NCBI GenBank assembly: GCA_965231105.1
Contig: OZ246417.1
Location: 704,908 to 768,907, forward strand
Length of the DNA stretch: 64,000 nt
Origin: an uncultured Candidatus Saccharibacteria bacterium
GTDB lineage: Bacteria > Patescibacteriota > Saccharimonadia > Saccharimonadales > JACDBH01
Direction of reading: 5' to 3'
The notes beneath the pieces were generated by a model. That model made no database searches and was not told where the DNA came from. It saw nothing but the letters and a program-made list of their open reading frames with translations. Each line of letters begins with the position of its first letter. Within the stretch, counting starts at the first letter, position 1. The translations under genes and the position numbers were made by a program. Shown piece after piece: positions 5,870 through 37,889 of the stretch.

Positions 5870-6813
5870 CCCTCTCGTTTCCACGCGTCACCGTACTTAT
5901 GAGCGTGTATAATGCCGAGGATTTTTTGCATGAGGCAATCGATAGCATTCTTAGTCAGACATTCACCGACTTTGAGTTTCTCATTATTGATGACGGTTCA
6001 AAAGATAAAAGCTTGAGCATTATTAAAAGCTATAAGGATGAACGCATTCGGCTTATAAGCCGTGAGAACCGTGGGCTTGTCGCATCATTAAACCAAGGTA
6101 TTAAGCTCGCAAAAGGTGAATTTATTGCTCGCCAAGATGCTGATGATATATCAATTCCTGAACGACTCGAAAAAGAAGTAGCCTATTTAGATGCACATCC
6201 GAAAGTTGGTCTTGTAGGCAGCAATTATGCCCATATCGATCGTAAAGGTAACCGAACCGGAACGGTGACAAACGTCTTTACTCGACCCCATGATTTAAAA
6301 TTAACGCTCATTACATGCAATCAATATGGCCATGGTTCGGTTATGATGCGAAAAGATGTGCTAAAAAAAGTTGGCGATTATGATAAATCGGTAGGGCATG
6401 TAGAGGACTACGATTTATGGGTTCGTATAAGCCGTGTTGCTGATGTCGCTAACATTGAAGAGCCTTTATACTTATGGAGAAAAACTGAAGAAAGCATCTC
6501 ACACAGTAATCTCGATTTACAGATTCAACAAACATTTGCTATTCGTGATAAAGCTTTCGAGCATTTCCTCAAGCACCGCCGCTCATATCGCATACTGTAT
6601 TACCGTTCTAGTGGGCTCCGGTATCGTGAACGAAAAGCGATTTTATATCGAGATCTTGGCTACTTATATAGGGCCCGTGATCGTTGGTTTGGTGCTTTCT
6701 GTATGGTATTATTGGCAATACTTTTGCAGCCACGAAACAAACTTAATTACCGGTATTTACTAATCGCGGTATACAAACCGCGTTTTGACCGTTGGGGGTA
6801 CGAATTCCTATGA
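5854..6813 (+). CDS. Glycosyltransferase family 2
   Basis: VLMSVYNAEDFL, IIDDGSKD and QDADD (DxD) motifs. Hydrophobic C-terminal segment. Confidence 0.85.
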   Translation: MAKNITLSFPRVTVLMSVYNAEDFLHEAIDSILSQTFTDFEFLIIDDGSKDKSLSIIKSYKDERIRLISRENRGLVASLNQGIKLAKGEFIARQDADDISIPERLEKEVAYLDAHPKVGLVGSNYAHIDRKGNRTGTVTNVFTRPHDLKLTLITCNQYGHGSVMMRKDVLKKVGDYDKSVGHVEDYDLWVRISRVADVANIEEPLYLWRKTEESISHSNLDLQIQQTFAIRDKAFEHFLKHRRSYRILYYRSSGLRYRERKAILYRDLGYLYRARDRWFGAFCMVLLAILLQPRNKLNYRYLLIAVYKPRFDRWGYEFL

Positions 6814-22707: not shown

Positions 22708-24603
22708 TTAACGAGCTGGTAATGTTGCATAAATCTGAGCAAGGAATGAAATAAAGGCTGGGTCGCGACATTCATCTCGTCCACCGCGTTGCGGTACGCC
22801 GCCTATTGTACAGCCACGGTCGATGTGTAAGTGAGGGCCACCACCCCAACAGACGCTGGTGAAGTTTTGTCTATCGGCAATTTCAGCAATCTTTGTACCG
22901 GCCGCTACGCGGGCTCCTTGGGTCACGGTGACATTCTTAAGGTGTCCGTACCAATAGTAATATCCGTCTTCGGCTCTGAACTGAATAGTGGAGCAGCCAG
23001 CGACGCCCTTGTAGTTCGTATTAATAGTGACGGGAGTACCATCGTAAATTGCGTAGACATCTGCACTATCGGTGCTGAAGAGGTCGTACGCTGGCGTGCC
23101 ATCATGGTGTCCGGTAGTAGTTTGCCCAACGCGTATACCACCGACAGCTTGTGTTTGTGGTGCAAGCGGAAAAGCATAGCCATCTATATTAACCTGGCCA
23201 GGGTTAGCTCCAGGATTGCCTCCGGGACCGGTGGCTATACAGCCGCCAGGAGTGGTTGAGAGACCAGAACCTGTAATAACGAGACCCTGAGTAACCGCAT
23301 CGATTGTGGCATACAGACCATTGATATAGGCCTGTTCATCATTGCCGTCTGAGCCTGGTGCATAGTGACTGATATACGTAGTGAAGTCGTGGGATTCATA
23401 AGGGCTGCCAGCGTTAAGATAATTACGCCGTATAGCCATAAACCAGTCATCACTGCCAGTTGGCTCTCCATCCAGACTTGCCTCCCATGAGGGCCACTGA
23501 TAAACCAATCGTACACGTCCTGATGATGTTGTATAGGTCGTGTGCGGCTGTGACTGGCTGGCTGATCGACCAAAAGCATTGTAGCTTGGTGGAGTAGTTG
23601 CGTGCCACCCGCTCGCGGCAGTGGCAAAGCCATTTTCACGCTGTAAATGACCCACTGCCAGGAATGGATTAACATTGCTTCGTTTTGCGCCACGGATAAA
23701 CGCTTCACCCAACCCAACAAATGGGCTTGAAGACCATCGACTAGAAATATACGTATTTATCGCTTGTGCGGCAGCGGCTTCATCAACGATACCGGGATAT
23801 GTAAGTACATGGGAAGGAATACCGTCTTCGGGCACATCTCCTGCTGCGCCAGGTGTTTCAGAGGCGCTTGGGCGCAAGGCATTGGCAATAACGGTAGCGA
23901 AAGTGTTATTGCCGGTGTTGGTGGGATGAATAGCATCTGAACCGAGTTCGATATTAGCACCTGTTGTGTCGATAACGCTGTAGCCAGAAGATGTTGCGAG
24001 GCTGGTAATGATTTCATTGCGAGCATCCCTTCCTGCCGTGTCGCTGGTGTAGAACAGGTTTACCCAATAGATGCGGGCATTAGGATTAATGCCGCGAATA
24101 TTAGCAAGGAGGGCTGGAATCTGTACGTTTAGATCCTCGGTGCCACTATTCGTGCCCAGAGCAATAACGATGACGCTAGAGTTAGATATGTGATTTTCAT
24201 CATCAAGCACTGCCTGTAATCCTGGTGGATTGCTTCCTGCGGTATCGACGGAAATTGCTCTTCCTGGGTCGGCGTTAATAGCGGTCACCGCATACCCTGC
24301 ACCAATTAACTCGGTAGAGACGTTTGTTCGAGCGCTGTTAGTAATTGAGTCGCCGAGCACGTACACGCTATTAGAATTAAGGCCGGGCACCGTAGCAACA
24401 GCACAGCCACCACTCTCTGGATCATATAAAGGGCTGCCGTAGTATAGCGATTCAAGATCTTCGGCAGATTGCGCAAGCGCAACCGGAGCGTATGCACTGA
24501 TTGTTACGAGTGTAATCGACAGTGCTGCGAGCCACATAGCTTTAGCAGGAAGATAAATGAGCTTTTTCAAGGACTCTTGCAACCGCATGCTACTGGCCTC
24601 CAT
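22708..24603 (-). CDS. Secreted three-module cell-wall hydrolase: SGNH/GDSL esterase + GH73-like glucosaminidase + M23 (LytM) endopeptidase
   Basis: Signal peptide ...APVALAQSA. GDSL block VYVLGDSITNS, GTNSG, DAIHPT. Central LAVGHLQRENGF...YNAFGRSA resembles the GH73 catalytic region. C-terminal YYYWYGHL...GGGPHLHIDRG matches the M23 HxH motif. Alternative start ATG 24588. Confidence 0.75.
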   Translation of the reverse strand: MEASSMRLQESLKKLIYLPAKAMWLAALSITLVTISAYAPVALAQSAEDLESLYYGSPLYDPESGGCAVATVPGLNSNSVYVLGDSITNSARTNVSTELIGAGYAVTAINADPGRAISVDTAGSNPPGLQAVLDDENHISNSSVIVIALGTNSGTEDLNVQIPALLANIRGINPNARIYWVNLFYTSDTAGRDARNEIITSLATSSGYSVIDTTGANIELGSDAIHPTNTGNNTFATVIANALRPSASETPGAAGDVPEDGIPSHVLTYPGIVDEAAAAQAINTYISSRWSSSPFVGLGEAFIRGAKRSNVNPFLAVGHLQRENGFATAASGWHATTPPSYNAFGRSASQSQPHTTYTTSSGRVRLVYQWPSWEASLDGEPTGSDDWFMAIRRNYLNAGSPYESHDFTTYISHYAPGSDGNDEQAYINGLYATIDAVTQGLVITGSGLSTTPGGCIATGPGGNPGANPGQVNIDGYAFPLAPQTQAVGGIRVGQTTTGHHDGTPAYDLFSTDSADVYAIYDGTPVTINTNYKGVAGCSTIQFRAEDGYYYWYGHLKNVTVTQGARVAAGTKIAEIADRQNFTSVCWGGGPHLHIDRGCTIGGVPQRGGRDECRDPAFISFLAQIYATLPAR

Positions 24604-27439
24604 TTACTGTTTGTGGGTTTACAATACCACTTTCAAGCCCGCCATCTGATGTGTAGCCGCTAGTAAAACCTAAACCACCACGGACTCGCCTATCCAGGGT
24701 TTCGCAGTTATATATATCAAGCACTGTCTGAGGGTCCTCGGAGTTATCGTCCACTCGTTCATATACTTTGTTCCAGAAAGCGTCTACATCACCCAGTAGC
24801 TCCATGGTGAGGTCACTTGCATCAATGAATGGTTCCCCATCGTCATTGGTTAGATCGTCGGCATTTGTCATGTCGGCAGCGGGTACACCAACAAACGGAT
24901 CTCGATCAAGACAGTATGCAGGAAAATCGTAGGTATCAATACCGGCAAACGATGCAGCACCGGCAAAACTAGGCTGTGCGCCAATGCGGGGGCTTACTAT
25001 AGAAATACCCGAGCTAAAGAGATTGCCGACCCAAGTCTTAAGTGAGCCGAAGTCGGTGGCCTTAAGTGTAGATAGGCTGAAGAGTGTCTGAGAAGCAAAT
25101 GATTCTGGGTTGGCGGTTGAGAAATATCTTTCAGTGAAAGACATAGTTTGGTTTTGTTCCTGAGCGTAATTGTATGCAATCTCGCTGGCCTTTAACTGAG
25201 ATCCTGGGTTGCTGCGTCCAGCGCCACTGGCACGCATGACACTCTCTGCTACATACGCAGCTCCCTGACCGATCATTGTTAGGATAAGCCCTGCGAGATC
25301 ATTAAAGCCTGTTAAGATTGGTCCTGCGCCCAAGAATGCAACAACCTTCTCGGTCAGCCAAGCCAGTGCCCTTTCAATACCACCGGTAATACCCAACGCA
25401 TCAAAGATAGGATCAATAATAGCCGAGACAAGATCACCGATTCTTCCTGATATCCAGCTTGCGACATCAAAGAAGAAGCCAGTTACCGGATTGTCTCGTG
25501 CGCTGTTGTAATCTTCAACAATTGGATGCAATATGCGACCTACCGAATTCATATACAAGCTCTCTATGCGACTTGCATTTGTCCGGCCCCCAATCTTTGT
25601 GCTATCGCAGTTCCAATAGTATTCACCCTGAGCCGGCACGTGTGAGTCGTTGCAAAAATCTGCTCGTTCCTGAGATGTATTGCCATGGTTGAGCTCGTCA
25701 TTAAAGAAGTAATCATAGGCTTCGCTCTTTTCAAGCCCATTGAGGCCTTCCATAATTACATTATATTCGTCGGCGGTGAGCTGCCCGGTTTTTGTTTGAT
25801 CCCGCATGATCGAATAGGTGGTGTATGCAGCAGCAGCTTGAGTACCTTTAGCAACGGTAGCTAGCTGGCTAAGGCGTCCATTCATTATGTTGGAGTCAAT
25901 GCGCGAAAGCATATCCATTGTATCCACGATATTAATAACAGTAGCGGCGATATTGAGCTTGGTCATGATGCCACGCAAAAGTTCGGCACGTAGTGCTGCA
26001 CTTGCCGCTTCATCAGTGGCGTTTGCTACGTTGTCTACGGCCTCAGAAACAAGGTCATCGACAGCATCGGTGGAACTTCCATCACCCCGTACAATGTTTC
26101 CATCTTCATCGGTCACAGGGCTACCATCAGGATTAAGTTCGGCTCTATCGCCGTCTGTATCGGTTGTTCGGCCAGAAAAGCTACGCTGAGTCTTATTTTC
26201 TGGATTATTAACATCTCCGTTCTTGGGGCAAGATCCTGCTCCAAAAATACACAGCAAGAATTTGCCACTCCTTGTATCTGCTGGAATGAGTTTTCTAAGT
26301 AGCTTTCTTTGAATCTCTATCTTACGCTGCGTTCTATTGTTTCGCCTTGTCTCAAAGAACTTCCATTCAGTTACGCCGGTCATATTTTGAATATCTTTGC
26401 GAATGTGACGTCTCCGCAAGACGCGAAGGAAGTGCGTATTATCATTCACGACTTTCTTAATCGCTCTCCGGGCTTCTTGACTATTTTCAAATATATCGAG
26501 ATTTATAAATTCATCGAGCCTAGTTCCAACTGTATTGAGTGCATCAATACTGCTTTGTCCCCCGGCATTAATTTGGTTGAAGAGGTTACGCGCATTTGCC
26601 TCCCCTCCATATTCCTGGACGGGATCGAACGTAAAGTTAATATCTTGCGACCTCGTTCTTACCGATATGAGTCCGGTGCGTGGATTTCCTACGGCATCCA
26701 CCATGCTTGTAAAGTAAATGCCGTGCTTATTAAAGACATCCTGCTCAAATCGACTTGTGCGAAGGGTGCGGTACCAATCGGTTAATGGGCGATCAGTATC
26801 TACTTTTTGGGCACGGAAGAAGTGGTTATCTTGTCCTGGGTTGGCGGTGCCGTTAAATTCAAACATACGAATTTGAACGTAAGCCTTAACCCATTTATCG
26901 GAACGGTTATCAAAGACGGCATTGAAGCGCGCAAAAGACTTGGCATCGATATTATCCAGTATGTGCTGAAGCTTGAAAATGCCTAAGAAGTTAAAGAGCG
27001 CAAAGCCCGCCAGCACGAGACCAGTAATACCAGCACCTGCTCCAGCAAGAAGTTTTTTATTCTTTTTGAACTTCCCAAGAAATCCACCTTTTTTGGCATT
27101 TCCACTGCCCGTGCCCTGCTTGTTATTGTAGAGGCCCGTATCTTCGCGCTTATCCTCCTTTAAGGCATCACGGAACATAGTGCCAGCATCTTCGGCGTCT
27201 TCTTTTTCTCTCTTGTTTCCTTTTGTTGAGGATCCGCCTTCCCCAGAAACTACAGAGGCTTCACCCCAGCTTTCTCGCGCCTTCTCAAGACCTGTTTTAG
27301 TGCTCGCTGCACTTTCGTTTTCCGCTGTCTCAAGATTCTCGTCCTTTGGTGCCATGCCCCAGCGGCGATTTGCTCGTTCTTGGGCGCTTAGGTTTTTGAC
27401 GTCTCCCTCGTCGTCATATACTCGATTGGGCAATGCCAT
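24590..27439 (-). CDS. 949-aa orphan membrane-anchored protein of the T4SS-like operon
   Basis: Charged, low-complexity N-terminal 130 aa, TM LLAGAGAGITGLVLAGFALFNFLGIF, then about 790 aa with a further hydrophobic patch (VVAFLGAGPILTGF...LILTMIGQGAAYVA). I recognise no domain. Confidence 0.6.
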   Translation of the reverse strand: MALPNRVYDDEGDVKNLSAQERANRRWGMAPKDENLETAENESAASTKTGLEKARESWGEASVVSGEGGSSTKGNKREKEDAEDAGTMFRDALKEDKREDTGLYNNKQGTGSGNAKKGGFLGKFKKNKKLLAGAGAGITGLVLAGFALFNFLGIFKLQHILDNIDAKSFARFNAVFDNRSDKWVKAYVQIRMFEFNGTANPGQDNHFFRAQKVDTDRPLTDWYRTLRTSRFEQDVFNKHGIYFTSMVDAVGNPRTGLISVRTRSQDINFTFDPVQEYGGEANARNLFNQINAGGQSSIDALNTVGTRLDEFINLDIFENSQEARRAIKKVVNDNTHFLRVLRRRHIRKDIQNMTGVTEWKFFETRRNNRTQRKIEIQRKLLRKLIPADTRSGKFLLCIFGAGSCPKNGDVNNPENKTQRSFSGRTTDTDGDRAELNPDGSPVTDEDGNIVRGDGSSTDAVDDLVSEAVDNVANATDEAASAALRAELLRGIMTKLNIAATVINIVDTMDMLSRIDSNIMNGRLSQLATVAKGTQAAAAYTTYSIMRDQTKTGQLTADEYNVIMEGLNGLEKSEAYDYFFNDELNHGNTSQERADFCNDSHVPAQGEYYWNCDSTKIGGRTNASRIESLYMNSVGRILHPIVEDYNSARDNPVTGFFFDVASWISGRIGDLVSAIIDPIFDALGITGGIERALAWLTEKVVAFLGAGPILTGFNDLAGLILTMIGQGAAYVAESVMRASGAGRSNPGSQLKASEIAYNYAQEQNQTMSFTERYFSTANPESFASQTLFSLSTLKATDFGSLKTWVGNLFSSGISIVSPRIGAQPSFAGAASFAGIDTYDFPAYCLDRDPFVGVPAADMTNADDLTNDDGEPFIDASDLTMELLGDVDAFWNKVYERVDDNSEDPQTVLDIYNCETLDRRVRGGLGFTSGYTSDGGLESGIVNPQTVNGGQ

Positions 27440-27447
27440 GTCTTATC

Positions 27448-29364
27448 CTACATTCCCGGGCTTAAACGGTTGTTTAAATCTATTGTACCTTGTGGCTGAT
27501 TAATGTCACCCTGCTCAATAGCCTGAACTTGGCTTGGATTGGTGGTTATAAGGCTTGTTTCAGTTGGGCTAGCAATAATCTGAATATGAACATGGTTTTG
27601 TCCTGCAAAGAAAAGCCCCTGCCCAACCGGGAACTGGCTTAATCGTTTCTTTTCTTCACTTGTTAACTTAAATACGTCACTAAGTACGTCAACTGCAGAG
27701 GTCGATTGTTTAAGGAGTAGCTGCATGGACGCGTTCGCAACAATGGCGCGCCCCATACGAGAACCCATGAAGTCTTCCACGTCCTGCGTGATGGTTGTAA
27801 TGCCTAGGTTGTACTTACGAGCTCGCTTTGCGAGTGAGAACAGGAAGTTTGCTGAGTCTTCATATTTCATAAGCTGCCAGGCTTCATCAACGATAAGGAT
27901 GCGTTTTTTGCGATCAGTCTTCGTCTTATTCCAGATGAAGTTAAGGACAATATACATGGCAACCGGACGGAGCTCATCTTCAAGGTCACGGATATTAAAG
28001 ACAACCATAGGGTTGTTAATATCAATGTTACTCTGCTGGGAGAAGATGCCTGCGAAGGTACCGGTCGTATATTTGCGAAGCCTTTGAGCAAGCTGTGGAC
28101 CTGTGCCGCCCATGTGAAGCAACGTATCATACAGGTCGTTAATAGTTGGAGGTTGTGAAACATGGGTAAGCGGATCGTTTGTAATACCAGCGCGAGCATA
28201 GGTTTCGATAAGGGCTGCGTCAAGATCTGATTCTTCTACTGGAGTTAAGGCAGGCATGCTCATTGCCTGGCCACCCACTAACTGTGTTTGGGCGCCACCC
28301 ATCATGAGTCGCAAGAGACCATGGAGTGTAATGAGATTTGAACGCAGTGCACTATCGGCTTCATCAGTATCAACAACTTTTGGTAAGTCGAACGGATTAA
28401 TACGAGTAGTTGAGTTAAGGCTCAGACGTACATATGCCCCGCCCACGGCATCGGACATACGCTCATATTCATTTTCTGGGTCAATAATGAATATTTCAGT
28501 ACCAAACATAAGGCTACGAAGTGCCTCAAGCTTAACGGAGAAGCTTTTACCTGCACCAGACTTAGCGAATACAACTGAATTGCCGTTTTCCAGTGAGAAC
28601 CGATCAAAGATAACAAGACCAGAGTTGTGCATGTTAATGCCATACAAAATACCGTTATCTTGGCTGAGGTCTGCTGAAGTAAATGGGAATGAAGTAGATA
28701 GTGCGCCCGTGTTCATATTGCGACGTATTTGCAGCTGGTCTACGAATTGCGGAATAGTACTATTAAGCCCCTGCTCTTGTTGGGCGCTTGCTGGTTTTGA
28801 ATAGATAAGCTGTTGGCCGAGCATCGATTCAACTTTGTGACTGACAAATTCCAGCTCATCCATGCTGTTGGCGTAGACGGTAAAGTAAAGGCCAAAACGG
28901 AAGAAGCGCTCTTCACCCACCTGCAATTTGTCGCGCATTTCTTCGGCGTCAAGAATGCTGGCTTGCTTGGCGGGATCACGTACGCGGCCTTTCTCGGCAT
29001 CGATCTGGATACCCGCTTCGAGTTGGGAGACTTTCTTGCGTAAGTTTTCAAGTACCACCTGGCTCTCGACAGGATAGATGAACATAGATAGGTCAATAAC
29101 TTCATCAAGATTCACCATCGTGCTGAGCCAACCAGTAAAGATCTGACGAGGGTAGCCGTATACATAAAAGGTGCGGGCATATCGAGTGCCAATACGGAAG
29201 AAGCCGCTCTGGAATTCAATGGAGCTTGGTGCGATAAAGTCGCGGAGGGCTGTGACGCCTTTCTGGAACGCAAGATTAACTTCTTGCTCTTCCCGAGCAC
29301 GCTGGGCCTGTGCTAACGCGACAGGATCTTGAGTTGGTTGCTGTTTCTTACCAAAGAGCGCCAT
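27448..29364 (-). CDS. VirB4/TrsE-type T4SS ATPase (ATPase-containing part)
   Basis: Walker A VFAKSGAGKSF, Walker B RILIVDEAWQL. The N-terminal FIAPSSIEFQSGFFRIGTRYARTFYVYGYP pattern is typical of Gram-positive VirB4 homologs. Ends with TAG. Confidence 0.85.
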   Translation of the reverse strand: MALFGKKQQPTQDPVALAQAQRAREEQEVNLAFQKGVTALRDFIAPSSIEFQSGFFRIGTRYARTFYVYGYPRQIFTGWLSTMVNLDEVIDLSMFIYPVESQVVLENLRKKVSQLEAGIQIDAEKGRVRDPAKQASILDAEEMRDKLQVGEERFFRFGLYFTVYANSMDELEFVSHKVESMLGQQLIYSKPASAQQEQGLNSTIPQFVDQLQIRRNMNTGALSTSFPFTSADLSQDNGILYGINMHNSGLVIFDRFSLENGNSVVFAKSGAGKSFSVKLEALRSLMFGTEIFIIDPENEYERMSDAVGGAYVRLSLNSTTRINPFDLPKVVDTDEADSALRSNLITLHGLLRLMMGGAQTQLVGGQAMSMPALTPVEESDLDAALIETYARAGITNDPLTHVSQPPTINDLYDTLLHMGGTGPQLAQRLRKYTTGTFAGIFSQQSNIDINNPMVVFNIRDLEDELRPVAMYIVLNFIWNKTKTDRKKRILIVDEAWQLMKYEDSANFLFSLAKRARKYNLGITTITQDVEDFMGSRMGRAIVANASMQLLLKQSTSAVDVLSDVFKLTSEEKKRLSQFPVGQGLFFAGQNHVHIQIIASPTETSLITTNPSQVQAIEQGDINQPQGTIDLNNRLSPGM

Positions 29365-30309
29365 CTAGATAAGCTCCCTATCAAGATTTGGTTGTGGGGC
29401 CGCACCCTGCCCTTTAGTAATAACAGGAGCGGTAAGGTCATTAAAATTTTTCATTTGCTGTCGGGTTGCGGTATCGGGGTTATAGGCATCGTAATACAAC
29501 TCAATAAGCTCCTGGGTATCTAATGGGAGTCCTTGGATGCCACACTGTAATAAACCACTCAACACCGATTGTACACGGTTTCTTAGTTCGGTCTTGGCTG
29601 CTTCAAGGTCTGCTTCATTGATAACAACATGCTGTTCTTTCTTTGAAAAGGTTCCCATGAAGTTACCCAAGAAGTTCTTACTTGCCTGTACGGCCTTTTG
29701 GGCATCGATAACAGGAATATACGGGATAATAATGTAAAACTTCTTATCCATAATGTTTGTCTGCTGAGCAAGTTCACCCATGAAGAAGATGTAGTCTTCC
29801 ATAAGGAGCGCAAGAAGCATGTTATCGTGTTCGGAGCGGATCTTATCAAGCTTTTGGATATAGGGCCGCAAGTCCACCTTTTGTGAGCGCACAAAAAGCT
29901 GAACTGGGAAATATAACGAGTTCAAGAAGCCCTGATAACTGAATTCAACTGCCTCACGTTCCTGAGGGCTCATGAGGTCAAAGTTGATGCTCTTTACCAT
30001 GATTACTGAGCGGAACGTACCATCGTTCATGATTACGATACCATCACGAATTTCGGCAATCTCTAGAGTGTTCTGTGTGCTGTTTGGATTCGATTGAGCA
30101 GCTACGGTTGTTGTCTGTGGTCCATTTGGTGCGGGCGCTGCTTGCTGCGGTGAGTAATGCGTAGCAGCATATTCTTGGGGATTATTTGGTGCGAGAAATG
30201 GGCTCGCTCCTGGCTGTGAGCCTGATTGCCCCGAAGGTGTGCCAGCAGACGCAGGCGCGGTACCTGGCGCATTTGATGGCTGGCTTGGTTGTGTGCTGCT
30301 TGGTCCCAT
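29365..30309 (-). CDS. VirB4 N-terminal-domain-like protein with a P/Q/S-rich leader
   Basis: LEIAEIRDGIVIMNDGTFRSVIMVKSINFDLMSPQEREAVEFSYQGFLNSLYFPVQLFVRS resembles the extreme N-terminal region of long Firmicutes-type VirB4 proteins. Same reading frame as 27448-29364, separated only by TAG. Confidence 0.65.
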   Translation of the reverse strand: MGPSSTQPSQPSNAPGTAPASAGTPSGQSGSQPGASPFLAPNNPQEYAATHYSPQQAAPAPNGPQTTTVAAQSNPNSTQNTLEIAEIRDGIVIMNDGTFRSVIMVKSINFDLMSPQEREAVEFSYQGFLNSLYFPVQLFVRSQKVDLRPYIQKLDKIRSEHDNMLLALLMEDYIFFMGELAQQTNIMDKKFYIIIPYIPVIDAQKAVQASKNFLGNFMGTFSKKEQHVVINEADLEAAKTELRNRVQSVLSGLLQCGIQGLPLDTQELIELYYDAYNPDTATRQQMKNFNDLTAPVITKGQGAAPQPNLDRELI

Positions 30310-30350
30310 GTTTGGCTAATCCCACCCCTGAAATAGACGATTATACGCTA

Positions 30351-31502
30351 CTAGTGAAGTGAAATCACTACCTCGCCATCAGACTCGCTCAATTGCTGGG
30401 CCTGACGGGCAATGGTTGCCACGTTCAAATCGTCGTTATTGGCAAGACTAAGTATAGCAGGATTAGGGGGTGGTGTCTGCTGTTTTGTGGCAGGTTTTGG
30501 TAAAGGTGATGCTGCTGGAGCTACAGGGCTTGGTGTTGGCGTAGACGATCCAATCGGCATTGCAGGGCCGCTTGGATGACTGCCGCTCAAAGGCTGGATA
30601 GTCTTTATGTGTGATCCAAAGGCGGACTGCATCCTTGCCTGCTCGGCTTCGATCTTATCGATAAGTGCCTGCTCCTCGGCTGTTGGAGCGGGTGTAGCTG
30701 CGCTACTGGAGCCTGGCACCACAACACGGCTCGCGGCAAAAGTTGTGTAACCGGGTGCTGATGATTGCTGCCCGCCTTGAGCTGGCTGATTAAGGAACCA
30801 ATAGTCTGCAGGCGGTTGAGTGGATTGTGTACCTCCCTGCTTTACGCTCTGCATGACTTTTTCACGATGTGCTTGCGTTGATGCCTCTACCATTTGTTCG
30901 AGATGTTGAGCGGTTGGGTTGCTTTTAGCATCAAGCATATCGTCCGCGGGAAGAACGTCAGTGTCGGTAACGGATGTAGGAAGCGCACTCGGAGCTACCA
31001 GACGATCAGAACCGTCGTCAGTGCTTAAATAACCTGGTTGTCCGAACATATTAACATTTACATTTTTAATGGCCCATCCACGGCTATCCAGAGTAGTGGC
31101 GAGAGCGGAAAGTCGACTTCGTACCTCGTTCTGGCTTAGATTATTAGTAAAGATATGGTCAAGTCGTTTTGGTGCAGTAATGGTCACGAGTTGGCTCAGT
31201 CCATCTTGGTTCCAAATGCGGTTGTGGGGCTTTATGAAGAACCTCAAACGAGCCAGCAACCATACATCATTGGGCTGATCACGACTAATTGGAGCTGCTA
31301 AAAAGCCAAAGATTATCATAGGAACTAACAGAGCAAATACAAAAGGATAGCGGACAATACCGAGCCCGGTGGTAGTAATAAGCTTAAACTCGACAAAGCC
31401 AATACCAATGGTAACAATGGCAAATATAAATTGTTTAAGTGTTAAAGGACCAAGAAGTTTATCTTCTGCCTCAATATCCTGCAATACCTTATATGTAGCC
31501 AT
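30351..31502 (-). CDS. PrgI-family (VirB3-like) membrane protein with a long C-terminal extension
   Basis: MATYKVLQDIEAEDKLLGPLTLKQFIFAIVTIGIGF followed by a second TM, which is the PrgI-family signature. About 250 further aa are A/P/Q/S-rich. Confidence 0.7.
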   Translation of the reverse strand: MATYKVLQDIEAEDKLLGPLTLKQFIFAIVTIGIGFVEFKLITTTGLGIVRYPFVFALLVPMIIFGFLAAPISRDQPNDVWLLARLRFFIKPHNRIWNQDGLSQLVTITAPKRLDHIFTNNLSQNEVRSRLSALATTLDSRGWAIKNVNVNMFGQPGYLSTDDGSDRLVAPSALPTSVTDTDVLPADDMLDAKSNPTAQHLEQMVEASTQAHREKVMQSVKQGGTQSTQPPADYWFLNQPAQGGQQSSAPGYTTFAASRVVVPGSSSAATPAPTAEEQALIDKIEAEQARMQSAFGSHIKTIQPLSGSHPSGPAMPIGSSTPTPSPVAPAASPLPKPATKQQTPPPNPAILSLANNDDLNVATIARQAQQLSESDGEVVISLH

Positions 31503-31559
31503 AATCTTTCCTATTATAGATCAAAGCCTCTAGTCGGGTAAAATCTCAGCAAACAGCAC

Positions 31560-34500
31560 TTATAGTGAGCGGGGACCAGTAGGAATTTCTGTAGGATCTG
31601 TTCCGGGTGGGGGCGTTCCGGCCGCAGCTGCTGCCTGTGCTTGCAGACTGCTGGCATATTCTTTACGAGCTTCTTTGTATATTGGATCGCTTGCAAGCGC
31701 TTCGCTTGCCTGTTGAACGGTTATCTTTTCATGTAGACCCACAGGAACCATCTGACGAATAACGCGAGTGCCCCCAGGTGCGGCTGCGTCTGGAACTGTA
31801 ACTTCCTGCTCCTCATATTTAGTAATAACACTCCTAAGTCTGTTGCGCATATCGTCATTAAGCTTAGATACGTCAATTTCCTGACTCATGACTTTGTCTG
31901 CCATAACTTGTGCGCTTTCAGGACTTATTTGATTCGCGAGATCATAGCGGCCTGCAATTGCGCCAATGTTACGAAGAATAACTCGGTTTGCATTCGCAAC
32001 AGCCTTTGCCCTTTGTTCATCATTAGTGTAGCTGGGATCTGTATTTATGCGGTCTATCTCACTCTGAACGGCGGTTATATCCGAATGTAGATCCTCTGTC
32101 ATTACCTTCGCAAGTCGTTCTCTAAGCTGTTTTGGCTTCATCGATACAATCGTACCGCCACTCTGTGTGCGTAGGGTTTCGCGGTCAATTACTGAGGTTA
32201 CATCATCCTGAACTGCCTTAATTTCCTCGTATGTGCCTCCCCGGTCTACGGCTTCACGCACCCTGCTCAACTGGCCTAGACGATGTCCAAAGCCCCCACC
32301 CGCAAGATCTGCTCGTCGGGCATTACCTGCGAGACCACGCATCTCAGCTAGCATGCGAGTTGCTAGCATGCTATCGCCATGAGCAGCGTCAGCAATAGCA
32401 CGGTCCATTTCACCCGCACCACTACCATACCCAGTGCCTGTACTTGTTATATTAACTGCTGCCGCAACATTAAACGATTCATTAGACATGCTACGTCGTG
32501 CGTTCGTGATCGCGCCGACAGCTTGTTCGAGATCTCGGCCCTGATAAATTTTTTCTCCTTTATCATTTACACGTGAAGCAAGATATGCGCGGATTGCTTT
32601 TACCGAGCCATCTCGTTGGATTGTCCTGCCCAGTGCATCCGTAACGGCATTGCCGGCAGTATCACGCACTACATCGGATGCTTCACGGCCTGCCTCGAGG
32701 TAATCCTCGTTTCCCATAATGTGCTGGAACCAATGGTTTTTTTCGCGTGCTTCTCGGGCCTCATCATAAGCATTGCGTGAGCGAAGGGCCTGCATGCGTG
32801 AACGCATCTGCTTGCCCGGGATAAAGCCAATATTTTCCGGAGTGGCGTTTGTTGCGATTTCAAGCCCGCTATTAAGTTTGCGAGCAGCCCAAGAATTGCC
32901 GCGATAGCGATTGCCTGTTTGCATGCCTTCGAAGTTCTTTTGCACCTGACCCTGACGGAATTTCTTATTGCGGTCAAAGAAGCCGCGTGAACGGTCGTTA
33001 ACCATGCCGCCAAGAGTTGCAATTGCACCCCCGGCAAGCCTAAAGGTTGCGGGGATTAAGAAATACGGAATAGCGTATGCGGCCACGACGATCACAAATT
33101 GTAAAATCTGCCATGTATCAGGTGGGTCGGAAGCAGCTGTGACATATGCAAAGATACGTCCGCTGGCAAACAAGACCATGATAAGCGGGAACATAAGAAG
33201 GCCCTTACTAAAGGCATCCCACCAGAATTTACCGAACTTCTCAGTACCTGGAATGATGTAACAGATAATTGCAAAAGGTGCGATCATAAGCGCCGATATG
33301 ATGACGATGTTTCGTATGATAAGCACCGCAAAGCCGATAATAACACTTGCAAGTGTAGTTAACGCAAGTGATGCGATACCAAGCGCTCCTAGCGCTAATG
33401 CACTTGCGCCCGCCAAGCCAATCATGACGGCATTAAAGCTTATCAACCCACTTCCTGCTACGCTTTGCGAAATCACGTCAGGATATTCAATTGCCGCATC
33501 ACCACCAAACGGTGCAAGCATAAGATTAGTTATACCTTTCCCTACGTCATTCGTGACCTCAATAAGGAAGGTCATAAGGCCCCAAGAAATCTGCATAAGA
33601 ATTACAGCGGCAACCATTCGAGGTAAAATTTTTCTAATAGTATAGGCATCGAAAGGCCCAACGTTAATTGCCGTTGATATCACCATAATCATGGCAAAGA
33701 GGACTAAAAGGATACTAGCTATATTGCGGATATTTCCCCATGCAACGCGAAGGTCAGTGAGGTTATCGGTGCGTATCTCCATAATATTTTGCACCTGACT
33801 GTTGATTTCATTAAGTGTTCCGTCAATTCCTCGGATGATCGCACATAGTATCCAGCCTAAATTAGAGGTGTCATTGCTTTCACAACTTTGTTCCGGTGGA
33901 TCGCCTGCTGTTGTATTTGTGCCGGTTGGGCTTTGTGGGGTGCCACCCCCTACCCCAATAGCGGCCGTATTGCCAAGGGGGAAGCTGTTCGCTGTCCAAA
34001 TACCATTATTATCCTTAAAAACCCAACCATTGGAGTCTCCATAAGGCAGGCTGTTTTCAACCTCACAGGAACTGGGAAAGAAGGGCGTAAGAATATCGCG
34101 CTGTGGCTGGGGCACGGTATCGAGTCCATCTGTACCATTTGACCTATTATCTTCCAGTTTCCATGTCTCTGCACTTAGTCCGTCAGTTGAGACAATCATG
34201 AGGTTCGCACATGAATCATCGCCTTGTTTTACCCAAAGCTGAGGGCTAACTCCTGCACCGGTAGCTCGTCGATAAATACCATTATTGGCATCTTGAAGGG
34301 GTCTAATCGTATCTGGATCCACATATTCATAAAAGACTCTCTCATGAGTCTTATCTACCTGAATAGATATTGAGTTAGGATTTGTACCGTCACAATCACC
34401 ATTGGGTGGGTGAAAATCCATATCGAGCTGTCCAGTTAAGGCCCCACCTCCAACAGGCGAAAGGACGCCGTTACCGCTACCAAGATCAATCTGACCATAA

Positions 34501-34772
34501 CATTCGCTGTCAGCCTCAAGTAAGCGAAACCTGCGGACTGTATCCCATGTATTCTGATCAAAGAAAGTGTATGTTTCTGAGCCTATCGTGAGCTGTATAT
34601 AAGAACTGTTAATAAACCGTGCGGGAGGACTACCGGCACTCGCAAGACCGGTAATAGCACTTTCAGTAGTCGGAGCAGCCGCAGATGCTTTCTCGGGGAA
34701 TAATTGCAGAATAAGAGAAAGGCTTAAAACGCAGACTAAAAGCCCCAACCCAATTTTCTTTAGATACTTCAT
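31560..34772 (-). CDS. VirB6/TrbL-like polytopic T4SS channel protein (1070 aa)
   Basis: Signal peptide (…LQLFPEKASAAAP), about 330-aa extracytoplasmic domain, a block of at least six hydrophobic spans (about residues 350-590), then a hydrophilic C-terminal domain of about 480 aa. This architecture resembles TcpH/PrgH-type VirB6 analogs. Confidence 0.6.
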   Translation of the reverse strand: MKYLKKIGLGLLVCVLSLSLILQLFPEKASAAAPTTESAITGLASAGSPPARFINSSYIQLTIGSETYTFFDQNTWDTVRRFRLLEADSECYGQIDLGSGNGVLSPVGGGALTGQLDMDFHPPNGDCDGTNPNSISIQVDKTHERVFYEYVDPDTIRPLQDANNGIYRRATGAGVSPQLWVKQGDDSCANLMIVSTDGLSAETWKLEDNRSNGTDGLDTVPQPQRDILTPFFPSSCEVENSLPYGDSNGWVFKDNNGIWTANSFPLGNTAAIGVGGGTPQSPTGTNTTAGDPPEQSCESNDTSNLGWILCAIIRGIDGTLNEINSQVQNIMEIRTDNLTDLRVAWGNIRNIASILLVLFAMIMVISTAINVGPFDAYTIRKILPRMVAAVILMQISWGLMTFLIEVTNDVGKGITNLMLAPFGGDAAIEYPDVISQSVAGSGLISFNAVMIGLAGASALALGALGIASLALTTLASVIIGFAVLIIRNIVIISALMIAPFAIICYIIPGTEKFGKFWWDAFSKGLLMFPLIMVLFASGRIFAYVTAASDPPDTWQILQFVIVVAAYAIPYFLIPATFRLAGGAIATLGGMVNDRSRGFFDRNKKFRQGQVQKNFEGMQTGNRYRGNSWAARKLNSGLEIATNATPENIGFIPGKQMRSRMQALRSRNAYDEAREAREKNHWFQHIMGNEDYLEAGREASDVVRDTAGNAVTDALGRTIQRDGSVKAIRAYLASRVNDKGEKIYQGRDLEQAVGAITNARRSMSNESFNVAAAVNITSTGTGYGSGAGEMDRAIADAAHGDSMLATRMLAEMRGLAGNARRADLAGGGFGHRLGQLSRVREAVDRGGTYEEIKAVQDDVTSVIDRETLRTQSGGTIVSMKPKQLRERLAKVMTEDLHSDITAVQSEIDRINTDPSYTNDEQRAKAVANANRVILRNIGAIAGRYDLANQISPESAQVMADKVMSQEIDVSKLNDDMRNRLRSVITKYEEQEVTVPDAAAPGGTRVIRQMVPVGLHEKITVQQASEALASDPIYKEARKEYASSLQAQAAAAAGTPPPGTDPTEIPTGPRSL

Positions 34773-34781
34773 TTCTTATAG

Positions 34782-34790
34782 AATATAGCA
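34782..34790 (-). promoter_or_regulatory. Extended -10 element (TGCTATATT on the minus strand) for the T4SS-like operon
   Basis: The reverse complement of aatatagca. Only 9 nt separate the -10 from ATG 34772 and there is no SD, implying a near-leaderless transcript. Confidence 0.35.
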
Positions 34791-34827
34791 TATTTGACTC
34801 CAAAAAAGATCATTAGAAGCCGATATT

Positions 34828-34857
34828 TTGACGCCTATGGTTTTTATGAGTTAAGAT
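34828..34857 (+). promoter_or_regulatory. Candidate sigma-70-type promoter for the pilin array (TTGACG-18-TAAGAT)
   Basis: Hexamers at 34828-34833 and 34852-34857. 12 nt to ATG 34870, no SD. Confidence 0.3.
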
Positions 34858-34869
34858 TAAGACAAAATT

Positions 34870-35415
34870 ATGGCATCAATTTTAAAGCTCAAAAGATGGT
34901 TATTAGTAGCGCCGGTGATAGCGGCATCACTTTTTGTTCCATTACTCGTAAATACTAGGATAGCCTCTGCACTTACTCCGGGCTGTTATGCCCTATCCCA
35001 GGGGGAATATCTCCCTGCAAACTGTACAGATAACTCTCAAGCAGTGGGCGTTGAGCAGGGATTCTGTTATGTCGCGGCTGCGGGCAATGGTATAGGAGAA
35101 TTTGTTCAGTATGACTGCAATACACTCACAAGCACCGGCGGAGGTGGCAATAATTCTCCAGAAACGAATATTAATGAAGATGGACAGAAGATTTATGACC
35201 GATTGCGTGATGCCATCAACTTTCTCTCAGCCATTGCCGGCATAATTGTAGTCGGTTCTATAGTGTGGGGTGCTATCCAGTACACCACTGCAGGCAGCGA
35301 TCCTCAAAAAGTCAGTGCTGCGAAGAACCGTATATTTAATGCGGTAATAGCACTTATGGCTTATATATTTATCTTTTCATTCTTGCAGTGGCTTGTGCCG
35401 GGTGGAATCTTCTAA
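34870..35415 (+). CDS. VirB2/TrbC-like pilin paralog 1 (181 aa, four Cys in the ectodomain)
   Basis: Signal/TM LLVAPVIAASLFVPLLV...ASA. C-terminal hairpin IVVGSIVWGAIQYTTAGSDPQKVSAAKNRIFNAVIALMAYIF. Confidence 0.7.
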   Translation: MASILKLKRWLLVAPVIAASLFVPLLVNTRIASALTPGCYALSQGEYLPANCTDNSQAVGVEQGFCYVAAAGNGIGEFVQYDCNTLTSTGGGGNNSPETNINEDGQKIYDRLRDAINFLSAIAGIIVVGSIVWGAIQYTTAGSDPQKVSAAKNRIFNAVIALMAYIFIFSFLQWLVPGGIF

Positions 35416-35417
35416 AT

Positions 35418-35840
35418 ATGAGACGTATTAAATCTTTAGTGACTTCATTTTTGGCCAGTCTGGCACTTCTCGTATTTGCCTTCCCTGCCATTGCATTAGC
35501 GGCACCCTGTAACCCGGGAGCGGGCGGGAACTTTCTTAGCTTTCCAACCTGGTATAAGTATCTTGAGGGAGAAGATGTTTCTGGCAAATGTACACCAGTA
35601 GTAAATAGCCCGTCAGATGCTATCCCCGTACTTGTCGCAATTGTTGAGATCTTACTGAGAATCATTGGTCTCGCTGCGGTTGCTTTTGTGGTATATGGTG
35701 GTTTTCGTTATATCACGAGTCAAGGACAGCCTGATGCGACCAAATCTGCCCGGCAAACGATTCAGAATGCATTCATTGGTGTCGTAATAAGTATTATTGC
35801 GAGTGTAGGCGTAAGCTTTTTGGGAAGGTCTCTTACATGA
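35418..35840 (+). CDS. VirB2/TrbC-like pilin paralog 2
   Basis: MRRIKSLVTSFLASLALLVFAFPAIALA signal. Hairpin VVYGGFRYITSQGQPDATKSARQTIQNAFIGVVISII. ATG 35418 lies just after the upstream TAA. Confidence 0.7.
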   Translation: MRRIKSLVTSFLASLALLVFAFPAIALAAPCNPGAGGNFLSFPTWYKYLEGEDVSGKCTPVVNSPSDAIPVLVAIVEILLRIIGLAAVAFVVYGGFRYITSQGQPDATKSARQTIQNAFIGVVISIIASVGVSFLGRSLT

Positions 35841-36124
35841 GTTCATTAGAAATCATCGCAATAGGTATTAGCCAAACTGACATAACCATTCCGCAGGGTG
35901 AGCCTGGTGGCACTACCCTTCAGACTCTGCTTCGCATCGTTACTGGAACATTAGGCGCAGTAGCTTTTCTTATTATCGTAATCGCAGGTTTTAAATATAC
36001 CCTTTCTAGGGGAAATCCTGATGAAATTACGAAGGCGAAAGAAACAATTATCTATGCCGTAGCTGGGCTACTTATTTCAATGGCTGCTTTCAGTATTGTG
36101 ACCTTTGTCGTGGGGAGAACATGA
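35837..36124 (+). CDS. VirB2/TrbC-like pilin paralog 3 (short; no obvious signal peptide, no Cys)
   Basis: Hairpin FLIIVIAGFKYTLSRGNPDEITKAKETIIYAVAGLLISMAAF. ATGA overlap with paralog 2. Confidence 0.65.
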   Translation: MSSLEIIAIGISQTDITIPQGEPGGTTLQTLLRIVTGTLGAVAFLIIVIAGFKYTLSRGNPDEITKAKETIIYAVAGLLISMAAFSIVTFVVGRT

Positions 36125-36522
36125 AACGTAAGCTAGCGCTGTTGATCGCGGCAGGAACAATCCTTGCTACTTTGTTTAGCGGTGGGTCGGCTTTTGCTGT
36201 TGATCCTCTTGACGGTGCCTGCACTACTACTCCAGATTCACCTGCCTGTCAGCGTAGCGGAACAGATGCTAACGGTAATCCCCTTAATCCCCTTACCGGA
36301 GAAGGAGGTGCAATTATGCGAATCGCAAGCATCATAGCTATTCTTACGGGGATAGCGAGCGTTATCTTTATTATTGTAGGATCAATTAAGTACACCACGG
36401 CTGGGGGCGACGCACGCAATATCGAAAGCGCCAAGAATACAGTAATGTATGCACTTATTGGATTAGTGGTGGCAATATCGGCTCAGGCTATTATTGCCTT
36501 TGTAATAAATAGGACAAACTAG
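36121..36522 (+). CDS. VirB2/TrbC-like pilin paralog 4
   Basis: Signal LALLIAAGTILATLFSGGSAFA. Cys pair ACTTTPDSPAC. Hairpin IIVGSIKYTTAGGDARNIESAKNTVMYALIGLVVAI. Confidence 0.75.
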   Translation: MKRKLALLIAAGTILATLFSGGSAFAVDPLDGACTTTPDSPACQRSGTDANGNPLNPLTGEGGAIMRIASIIAILTGIASVIFIIVGSIKYTTAGGDARNIESAKNTVMYALIGLVVAISAQAIIAFVINRTN

Positions 36523-36537
36523 AAAACGGAGATATAT

Positions 36538-36921
36538 ATGAAAAAGTTAAGAATTGCTCTTATCGGACTTCTGACATTAACAAGTATATGGGGGCTTGCC
36601 CTCCCGGCTTCAGCGGAAACTGCCCAACAATCTGTTTGCGAAAGTATAGGACTTACACAGGGGGGCGGTGACTGCCAGACGACAGGAAATGGTCCATCTG
36701 TTGGCAGCCTTATTGCGACAATCGTACGCCTACTTGCTTGGGTGGCCGGTATCTTAGGGGTAGTCATGATGATTATAGGTTCTATGCGTTATATTACCTC
36801 TGGTGGAGATAGCAATAAGGTGTCAAACGCCAAGAATACCATCATGTATGCTCTTATCGGTCTTGCCATAGCTGCCTTATCGTTTGTTCTTGTAAGGTTT
36901 GTGCTCGGGTCTGTCTCCTAG
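36538..36921 (+). CDS. VirB2/TrbC-like pilin paralog 5
   Basis: Signal IALIGLLTLTSIWGLALPASA. Cys pair VCESIGLTQGGGDC. Hairpin MIIGSMRYITSGGDSNKVSNAKNTIMYALIGLAIAAL. Confidence 0.75.
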   Translation: MKKLRIALIGLLTLTSIWGLALPASAETAQQSVCESIGLTQGGGDCQTTGNGPSVGSLIATIVRLLAWVAGILGVVMMIIGSMRYITSGGDSNKVSNAKNTIMYALIGLAIAALSFVLVRFVLGSVS

Positions 36922-36953
36922 TAAATAGTACTTTTCTCCTCATTAAATAACTC

Positions 36954-36983
36954 TTGTATTTTCGTCTACAAAAGTGCTATAAA
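36954..36983 (+). promoter_or_regulatory. Candidate internal promoter ahead of pilin paralogs 6-7 (TTGTAT-18-TATAAA with TG extension)
   Basis: TTGTAT at 36954-36959. TGCTATAAA at 36975-36983. Lies in the only sizeable gap (93 nt) within the array. Confidence 0.3.
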
Positions 36984-37014
36984 TAAACGTAACTTATAAA
37001 CAAGGAATAAAACC

Positions 37015-37467
37015 ATGTTCAAAAAGATTAAAAACGTAATTTCCGCCCTTGTGGTTTCGTTATCACTCGCGGCACCTATTGCACTTGTAGCTGCTCCAAC
37101 ATCTGTAGGGGCAAGTGCGGTAACATCTGGTTTGTGTGAAGGTATCACCAGCGCTGAAAGTACAACAGGTGAAGGTGTGCGAGATGAAAGCTGTTTGAAC
37201 GATGCAGATAGCACCGGACGCGTAAACCGTATTATTCGTATCGTTATTAACCTTATTTCGTTGATTGTTGGTGTCGTATCAGTCATCATGATCATCATCG
37301 GTGGCTTCAAGTACATCACTTCTGGTGGTGACTCTGGTAATGTAACATCTGCCAAGAACACTATTATGTACGCCTTAATCGGTCTCGTAATTGTAGCTCT
37401 TGCTCAGCTCATTGTCCGCTTCGTACTTAACAGGACGGCCGGCGCTGCCGATCCTGCAGGTATCTAA
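37015..37467 (+). CDS. VirB2/TrbC-like pilin paralog 6
   Basis: Signal VISALVVSLSLAAPIALVAAP. Cys pair LCEGITSAESTTGEGVRDESC. Hairpin IIIGGFKYITSGGDSGNVTSAKNTIMYALIGLVIVALAQ. Confidence 0.8.
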   Translation: MFKKIKNVISALVVSLSLAAPIALVAAPTSVGASAVTSGLCEGITSAESTTGEGVRDESCLNDADSTGRVNRIIRIVINLISLIVGVVSVIMIIIGGFKYITSGGDSGNVTSAKNTIMYALIGLVIVALAQLIVRFVLNRTAGAADPAGI

Positions 37468-37889
37468 TGACGGCTAGCTTCATAGCAACAATTAAACGGA
37501 TAGGCATTAGCCTATCCGTTTTGTTCGCCCTTTTGATTCCAGCAGCTGTTCCAGCTGCCGTGCATGCTGCAGATGGTATTAGAGAAAATCTCTGTGCAGG
37601 TGCAAACCTTGATGTTAGTACAGACTGCTCGAGTGGTATTAGCGATCAGGAAGCTCAAGAACGTATTAACAGAATCATACGAAGCATCATCAACCTCTTC
37701 TCTCTCGTTGTGGGTGTAGTATCGGTTGTAATGATTATCATCGGTGGTTTGAAATACATTACTTCTGGGGGCGATTCTGGTAATGTGACAGGTGCTAAAA
37801 ACACGATCCTTTACGCAATAATTGGTATTGTTATCGTTGCCCTTGCACAGTTTATCGTTCGTTTTGTTCTTACGCGATTTGCTTCTTAA
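37467..37889 (+). CDS. VirB2/TrbC-like pilin paralog 7
   Basis: Signal ISLSVLFALLIPAAVPAAVHA. Cys pair LCAGANLDVSTDC. Hairpin IIIGGLKYITSGGDSGNVTGAKNTILYAIIGIVIVALAQ. TAATG overlap with paralog 6. Confidence 0.8.
   Translation: MTASFIATIKRIGISLSVLFALLIPAAVPAAVHAADGIRENLCAGANLDVSTDCSSGISDQEAQERINRIIRSIINLFSLVVGVVSVVMIIIGGLKYITSGGDSGNVTGAKNTILYAIIGIVIVALAQFIVRFVLTRFAS

Follow-up and report, generated by a model that had tools for sequence, protein, structure and literature searches.

A VirB4 protein probably encoded by two coupled genes, a TrsD-like N-proximal part and an ATPase part, in a Saccharibacteria type IV secretion locus

We have analysed a stretch of 64,000 nucleotides (nt) from an uncultured Candidatus Saccharibacteria bacterium (assembly GCA_965231105.1, contig OZ246417.1, positions 704,908 to 768,907; hereafter the window, with positions counted from its first letter), in which virB4, a type IV secretion system (T4SS) gene, is laid out on the minus strand as two adjacent open reading frames (ORFs), here named A and B. 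The results make it very probable that this is the normal bipartite VirB4 of the Saccharibacteria T4SS, encoded by two translationally coupled genes. What is observed in favour of this is the homology of both parts to VirB4, the conservation of the split, the existence of fused relatives and the anatomy of the junction between the genes. The two-gene arrangement as such is already published, in the form of TrsD plus VirB4 in systems of the pGO1/pSK41 type and in Patescibacteria (Quinonero-Coronel et al. 2025, PMC12102498), and for this reason it does not open a new question. The elements concerned are the following.

29365..30309, minus strand: ORF A, 314 amino acids (aa), stop codon TAG, from the ORF list
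27448..29364, minus strand: ORF B, 638 aa, start codon ATG, stop codon TAG, from the ORF list
29362..29367, minus strand: TAG/ATG junction, the ORF A stop (29367-29365) abutting the ORF B start (29364-29362)
29374..29378, minus strand: GGGAG, a motif like a Shine-Dalgarno (SD) sequence, within the last ORF A codons (...LDRELI-stop) and 9 nt 5' of the ORF B ATG
30076-30309, minus strand: ORF A leader, residues 1-78, rich in P/Q/S and of low complexity
29368-30075, minus strand: ORF A residues 79-314, the folded domain and a low-confidence tail of about 35 residues

At the junction the minus strand reads ...GGGAGCTTATC TAG ATG GCG CTC TTT..., which is also given as ...AGGGAGCTTATC-TAG-ATG-GCG..., and the two ORFs share one frame because the gap between them is 0. 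Both the sequence and the ORF list agree in this with an earlier sequence-only reading of the same DNA, which had described two same-frame ORFs split by TAG and then ATG, and the peptides it had quoted are found in the translations (LEIAEIRDGIVIMNDG..., FIAPSSIEFQ..., the Walker A stretch AKSGAGKSF and the Walker B stretch RILIVDEAW). That reading had also taken TAG for a genuine stop elsewhere in the window, as is indeed the case: all three stop codons are in use, and TAG closes 17 of the 54 non-overlapping ORFs of at least 120 aa, including those that it had named (27448-29364, 36121-36522 and 36538-36921). A tRNA scan of the 64-kb window found no amber suppressor, as none of its four tRNA genes has a CUA anticodon. 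Exactly this junction recurs in the Logan assemblies of three separately assembled metagenome runs (ERR2586215, ERR2586216 and ERR2586217), and an assembly error at this point is very unlikely.

The results obtained for ORF B evidence the core of a VirB4 ATPase, composed of a middle region of the 'CagE/TrbE/VirB' type and a P-loop ATPase C-terminal domain. Against the CD1110 VirB4 family (NF045971) it scores 360.9 bits (E 1.4e-107; curated cut-off 325) over profile positions 185-733 of 752, in line with the earlier suggestion that it resembles the remainder of VirB4. The translation contains the Walker A (GAGKS) and Walker B (ILIVDE) motifs, domain matches comprise P-loop_TraG, AAA_10 and DUF87, and residues 231-607 match the VirB4 C-terminal domain in PDB entry 4AG5 (E 1e-46), with a template modelling (TM) score of 0.83, normalised to the target, when a model of A joined to B is compared with this entry by Foldseek. 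What ORF B does not have is the N-proximal part of about 180 VirB4 profile positions, its matches beginning at position 185 in the CD1110 profile, 239 in TIGR00929 (covered over 239-732) and 303 in TraC. It is ORF A that provides this part. In ORF B the N-terminus M-A-(L/F)-(F)-G-K-K, nearly always kept across the 81 loci described below, fixes the start codon.

The folded domain of ORF A comprises about 200 residues, and its best profile match is the TrsD/TraD family (NF041427), with 26 bits and E 7.2e-6 for residues 83-195 against profile positions 20-142 of 201; being under the curated cut-off of 200 bits, ORF A is a remote relative of that family only. It also matches weakly the N-termini of the VirB4 profiles, at CD1110 positions 2-119 and TIGR00929 positions 19-177, and a profile of ORF A aligned by hhalign with pSK41 TrsD gives a probability of 87.6% (E 3.5e-6, 176 aligned columns). 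Its position is likewise that of TrsD, directly 5' of the VirB4 gene and 3' of a VirB3-like gene. A precomputed PF26593 'TraC-like' annotation is carried by a database protein identical to ORF A (P0001) and by all of its 120 top homologues. Our Pfam scan gave no match for ORF A and was equally silent for two proteins with a precomputed PF26593 (P0043 and P0227); since the scanned Pfam set was without PF26593, this silence is not evidence against homology. The AlphaFold2 model of the domain, built on an alignment of 72 diverse sequences, is confident (predicted local distance difference test, pLDDT, 86.5), and in a Foldseek search of PDB its top 14 matches are all chains of R388 TrwK/VirB4 (probability at least 0.99, TM score up to 0.52, about 209 columns), those that follow having probabilities of 0.15 or less. 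Stand-alone homologues of ORF A number in the thousands, and the best 120 of the 7,065 found are all stand-alone proteins of 256-367 aa. On these comparisons ORF A is a predicted TrsD-like protein that corresponds to the N-proximal domain of a full-length VirB4; the sequence-only reading had seen in it a likeness to the VirB4 N-terminus, and the profile positions, the TrsD/TraD match and the predicted fold, which in PDB matches only TrwK/VirB4 chains, agree with this.

A comparison of the ORF A domain with 1.8 billion cluster representatives (50% identity) gave 2,255 matches. Among the best 150 of these, 149 stand alone as short proteins; the remaining one, P0227, has 898 aa, of which residues 13-228 are the equivalent of ORF A (36% identity) and residues 312-889 that of ORF B (50% identity), with a proline-rich low-complexity linker of about 80 aa between them. 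P0227, carried by five contigs that come from several samples, follows immediately on a prgI-like gene, so that the prgI-virB4 synteny is shared, and when used as a query it retrieves about 65 further fused clusters of 820-910 aa, those with a name being mostly from Candidatus Berkelbacteria or the Patescibacteria group. The natural fusions, of 860-910 aa, align colinearly with A and B, which makes these the two parts of a single VirB4. An AlphaFold2 model of a concatenated chain of A(79-314) and B, made with an alignment of 47 natural fusions, is in turn colinear with full-length TrwK over about 900 columns (E 3.6e-27). A protein of 582 aa, P0336, which is 83% identical to the C-terminal part of a fused protein, was considered as a recent fission within Berkelbacteria and rejected, the locus having an uninterrupted ORF of 906 aa. 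This concerns CP066695.1 (L090 3029-5749), a complete 769-kb genome of Candidatus Berkelbacteria, where the deposited 582-aa 'ATP-binding protein' starts at an internal ATG and the 906-aa ORF takes in the TraC-like N-terminal domain as well; a fused VirB4 appears truncated here through an error of annotation.

We have then the conservation of the split within the lineage. In species-representative genomes 554 matches were confirmed; the best 80 loci are nearly all labelled Saccharibacteria or Saccharimonadales, and their A domains are 76-87% identical. The end of A and the beginning of B were located in 81 non-redundant loci, one of which is the window. Comparison of orthologous loci had been proposed earlier as a check, and its outcome is clear: two genes are present in 81 of 81 loci and the gene is fused in none. 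The junction itself varies. The genes overlap by 1 nt in 39 loci (TAATG, TAGTG or TGATG), by 4 nt in three (ATGA or GTGA) and by 8 nt in one, abut without a gap in two, and are separated by 1-7 nt in 13 and by 22-465 nt in 23. The exact TAG/ATG junction with gap 0 is found among the 81 only in the window and in one other locus (L069), and the closest species representative listed (L006, A domain 87% identical) has an ATGA overlap. ORF A closes with TAA in 43 of the loci, with TGA in 27 and with TAG in 11, and the two genes share a frame in only 10 loci, the other 71 being out of frame or overlapping. The in-frame relation in the window is thus not beyond chance, and the in-frame TAG/ATG is an incidental variant of a conserved coupled junction. 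One locus (L024, CAWDVI010000003.1, about 4715-6700) has its virB4 matches in three different frames, which could mean a frameshifted pseudogene or long-read indel errors in the metagenome-assembled genome concerned.

The anatomy of these junctions is that of coupled gene pairs. Tight junctions (-8 to +7 nt) are found in 58 of the 81 loci, and 54 of these carry an SD-like 4-mer 7-17 nt 5' of the ORF B start, as do 19 of the 23 loci with a longer spacer. In the window this anatomy consists of the gap of 0, the GGGAG within ORF A and the absence of a promoter or terminator between the genes, the scan of 27000-35000 having given counts at the level of shuffled sequence and none at the junction. 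As to RNA structure, no significant fold was found near the stop (z -0.75).

The loci with a spacer of more than 7 nt (n=23) are informative in a different way. In 20 of them ORF A ends in ATGA, and in 19 of these 20 the reading frame that begins there runs from one end of the spacer to the other without a stop (8-47 codons), where shuffled spacers predict 5.7. These mini-ORFs stop at the ORF B start, mostly as TGATG or TAATG, and their peptides show no conservation; they are found in L004, L008-L011, L018, L019, L022, L023, L029, L031, L036, L037, L042, L055, L060, L066, L067 and L078, in spacers of 22-139 nt that lie in most cases at about locus positions 4709-4860. In the spacers there are tandem repeats of heptamers specific to each species (CGAAGGA x5, TTGGAAG x4, CAAACTT x4.6, AATTTTC x4.4, CCTTTAC x4.6 and others; for example L009 4712-4810, L011 3293-3385, L023, L036, L066, L037 and L022), often with a roughly complementary repeat block 3' of them. 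For six spacers the fold is a long hairpin of significant stability (z -2.2 to -5.1), and many spacers end, just 5' of the virB4 ATG, in a small anti-SD/SD hairpin such as CCUCCGAAGGAGG / CCUCC-GAA-GGAGG. Judged from sequence, the mini-ORFs look like a relay that would preserve the coupling from A to B, with the excess over the shuffles indicating selection for an unbroken passage of ribosomes, and the pattern as a whole would fit mini-ORF ribosomes opening a sequestered SD. This pattern is not present in the window, and its occurrence in the relatives supports the coupling interpretation. A different insertion is seen in the Saccharibacteria genome of L014 (about 4712-5180), where a 128-aa ORF stands between the TrsD-like gene and virB4, starting at an ATGA overlap and ending 82 nt before virB4.

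The following mechanism can thus be proposed. Genes A and B would be co-transcribed with the upstream VirB3-like prgI gene, and two polypeptides would be made by termination and reinitiation, as ribosomes ending A at the TAG would already be positioned over GGGAG and the adjacent ATG of B. Such coupling should yield roughly equimolar A and B subunits, which would come together at the membrane, without a covalent bond, as a VirB4 protomer, the break sitting where the fused relatives have a putatively disordered, proline-rich linker. The N-terminal domains of VirB4 connect protomers through dimer contacts, touch the membrane and bind VirB3 and VirB8 (2025 review, PMC12857230). By analogy, subunit A may take over this role, and it probably contacts the VirB3-like protein as the N-terminal domain of R388 VirB4 does.

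Several points weigh against a bipartite VirB4 and have to be set beside this evidence. Against the curated models of TrsD and VirB4, ORF A reaches 26 and 22.7 bits, a weak similarity well short of the cut-offs, and no PDB chain matched its sequence even at E 10, its link to TrwK coming from fold comparison only. In the model of the joined chain the individual domains are confident, but the inter-domain geometry has low confidence (predicted TM score, pTM, 0.48; root mean square deviation of about 28 Å to TrwK), and for this reason the docking of A on B is not established and we make no claim of docking. In the same model, ORF A and the N-terminal region of ORF B share a similar order of secondary structure elements, so that the fold alone cannot place A on a given subdomain of TrwK; the assignment of A as the N-proximal part is based instead on profile positions and natural fusions, and not on the fold match alone. 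Finally, expression, coupling, stoichiometry and the physical assembly of A, B and the VirB3-like protein are what we infer. The shared order of elements is of some interest in itself: residues 6-198 and 285-427 of the model both run through three short strands, a helix, a strand, two helices, a strand and a helix, which hints, at the level of a model, at a possible ancient internal duplication in the N-terminal half of VirB4.

The sequence-only reading had left three explanations side by side, namely a genuinely split VirB4 made by stop-start coupling, read-through giving a fused isoform, and an artefact of assembly or mutation. Of these the first is strongly supported by the complementary profile matches, the TrwK-only fold and the 81 of 81 loci. 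A variant of it, which we consider unlikely, is that the split is functionally exploited in Saccharibacteria, for example through a TrsD:VirB4 stoichiometry or an order of assembly unlike that of a covalent 1:1 chain, together with a possible minor fused isoform from occasional read-through of the TAG in the genome of the window. In that case TrsD might decorate only one ring of the VirB4 double hexamer, and the relay mini-ORFs would reflect co-translational assembly of A and B.

Alternatively, the TrsD-like protein could have become an independent accessory factor, such as a regulator or a substrate adaptor, and no longer be part of the VirB4 protomer. Its similarity to VirB4 N-termini is indeed remote, its variable low-complexity leader is not found in the fused forms, and in Gracilibacteria the TrsD homologues are often away from virB4 (PMC12102498). 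Such an independent role is nevertheless decidedly unlikely: tight adjacency and coupling are kept in all 81 Saccharibacteria loci, the natural fusions join A and B colinearly at 36% and 50% identity, ORF B alone is without the N-proximal stretch of the VirB4 profile, and the fold of ORF A matches VirB4 only.

Amber read-through, programmed or at a low level, would give a functional fused isoform of about 953 aa beside the two subunits. Basal stop-codon read-through takes place in all bacteria, the ORFs of the window are in frame with one TAG between them, and the product would resemble the natural fused VirB4 of the Berkelbacteria-like type. The in-frame layout, on the other hand, is automatic at a gap of 0 and is not conserved, neither in the 71 loci out of frame or overlapping nor in the closest listed relative; the identity of the stop varies across the loci, the RNA fold near the stop of the window is not significant, TAG ends nearly a third of the large ORFs of the window, and a CUA anticodon is absent from its four tRNAs. 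Read-through is thus not supported as a designed feature and is highly improbable as the source of a functional isoform; in fact, since the in-frame TAG/ATG is an incidental variant of the conserved junction, it cannot be its conserved purpose, and at most trace read-through may occur in the genome of the window alone. As for an error of sequencing or assembly, or a nonsense mutation of recent date, that broke a single virB4 and left a pseudogene, a single stop between in-frame halves of a known protein is its classic signature and fused versions occur in other Patescibacteria, but its probability is negligible and the artefact is refuted by the three independent assemblies and by conservation, given that the 81 loci are all split and mostly in different frames, that both halves are highly conserved (the A domain at the 76-87% given above for the best 80 species representatives) and that ORF B has, like its relatives, the conserved N-terminus M-A-(L/F)-F-G-K-K and an SD-like motif.

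The bipartite VirB4 is embedded in further T4SS genes of the window, which are listed below.

30351..31502, minus strand: PrgI-family (VirB3-like) membrane protein, 383 aa, PF12666 with E 7.5e-9, above the cut-off; directly upstream of ORF A
24590-27439, minus strand: protein without known family, 949 aa, downstream of ORF B
22708-24603, minus strand: M23 peptidase, 631 aa, a downstream gene of the operon
34870..37889, plus strand: six tandem paralogous T4SS pilin genes (PF18895), divergent from the T4SS operon

The N-terminal region of VirB4 would be expected to have the PrgI-like protein as its membrane anchor and partner, and the order PrgI-like, A, B is also found in the relatives and in pSK41 as trsC-trsD-trsE. 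The PrgI-like protein is extended at its C-terminus by about 280 residues with a high content of P/Q/S/A. Both this extension and the leader of ORF A are of low complexity; the fused relatives carry a P-rich stretch in the linker instead. The M23 peptidase is likely the cell-wall hydrolase of the T4SS. Two of the six pilins also weakly match TrbC/VirB2, and the pilin genes show the locus to be a complete T4SS cluster of the Patescibacteria type. Pilins are unusual in T4SSs of the monoderm type, though reported for Patescibacteria.

The closest known parallel in layout is that of pSK41 and pGO1, which belong to the MPF_FATA subclass and encode TrsD and TrsE (TraD and TraE in the pIP501-type nomenclature). 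In pSK41 the order is trsC (VirB3-like), trsD (227 aa), 14 nt, trsE (672 aa, DUF87/VirB4), a membrane protein and a CHAP hydrolase, and in the window it is the prgI-like gene (383 aa), A, B, the 949-aa protein and the M23 peptidase, gene spacing being tight in both (14 nt and 0 nt). ORF A aligns with residues 30-216 of the 227 of TrsD, and ORF B (17-605) aligns with TrsE (3-626) end-to-end at 25% identity, for which reason the break point is homologous to that between TrsD and TrsE. As to differences from pSK41, the divergence is very high (the 26 bits of ORF A against the NF041427 cut-off of 200), ORF A has a P/Q/S-rich leader of 78 residues, and the system is chromosomal, belongs to an epibiotic Saccharibacterium and comes with six genes for VirB2-like pilins; conjugation systems of Gram-positive bacteria do not typically have pilins (PMC12857230). 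In comparison with single-chain VirB4 proteins (R388 TrwK, the CD1110 family of Bacillota, P0227 and the 906-aa ORF of CP066695), A and B together cover the full profile colinearly and ORF B has the same ATPase motifs and match to the C-terminal domain fold, whereas in the window the chain breaks off in the linker that follows the N-proximal domain. The VirB3-VirB4 fusions of some conjugative systems likewise show that the boundaries of the N-terminal domain of VirB4 are evolutionarily plastic, but they are a fusion and not a fission, and at another boundary; none was found in Patescibacteria (PMC12102498).

The system of the window is that described for Patescibacteria by Quinonero-Coronel et al. 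(2025, PMC12102498), with VirB4, a TrsD homologue, PrgI/VirB3, a VirB6-like protein and VirB2-like pilins, and no substantive difference from it was found. According to that paper TrsD is remotely homologous to the VirB4 N-terminus, and no other T4SS component was found as often in Patescibacteria: of its 2,272 homologues, 1,664 are associated with virB4. For Ca. Southlakia epibionticum the paper gives this homologue as listed among what is essential. To the portion of that account available to us, the present analysis adds the anatomy of the junction over 81 loci, the match of the TrsD-like protein to the TrwK fold and the fused forms of the Berkelbacteria-like type.

For annotation, these results mean that ORF A is to be called a TrsD-like N-terminal subunit of VirB4 and ORF B a VirB4 ATPase, and that the pair is not to be marked as a pseudogene, a frameshift or a recoding event. 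The existence of a two-chain motor with single-chain counterparts of the Berkelbacteria-like type also aids the design of constructs for structural work, by co-expression or by fusion, in a T4SS that has been reported to be essential for the epibiotic lifestyle of Saccharibacteria.

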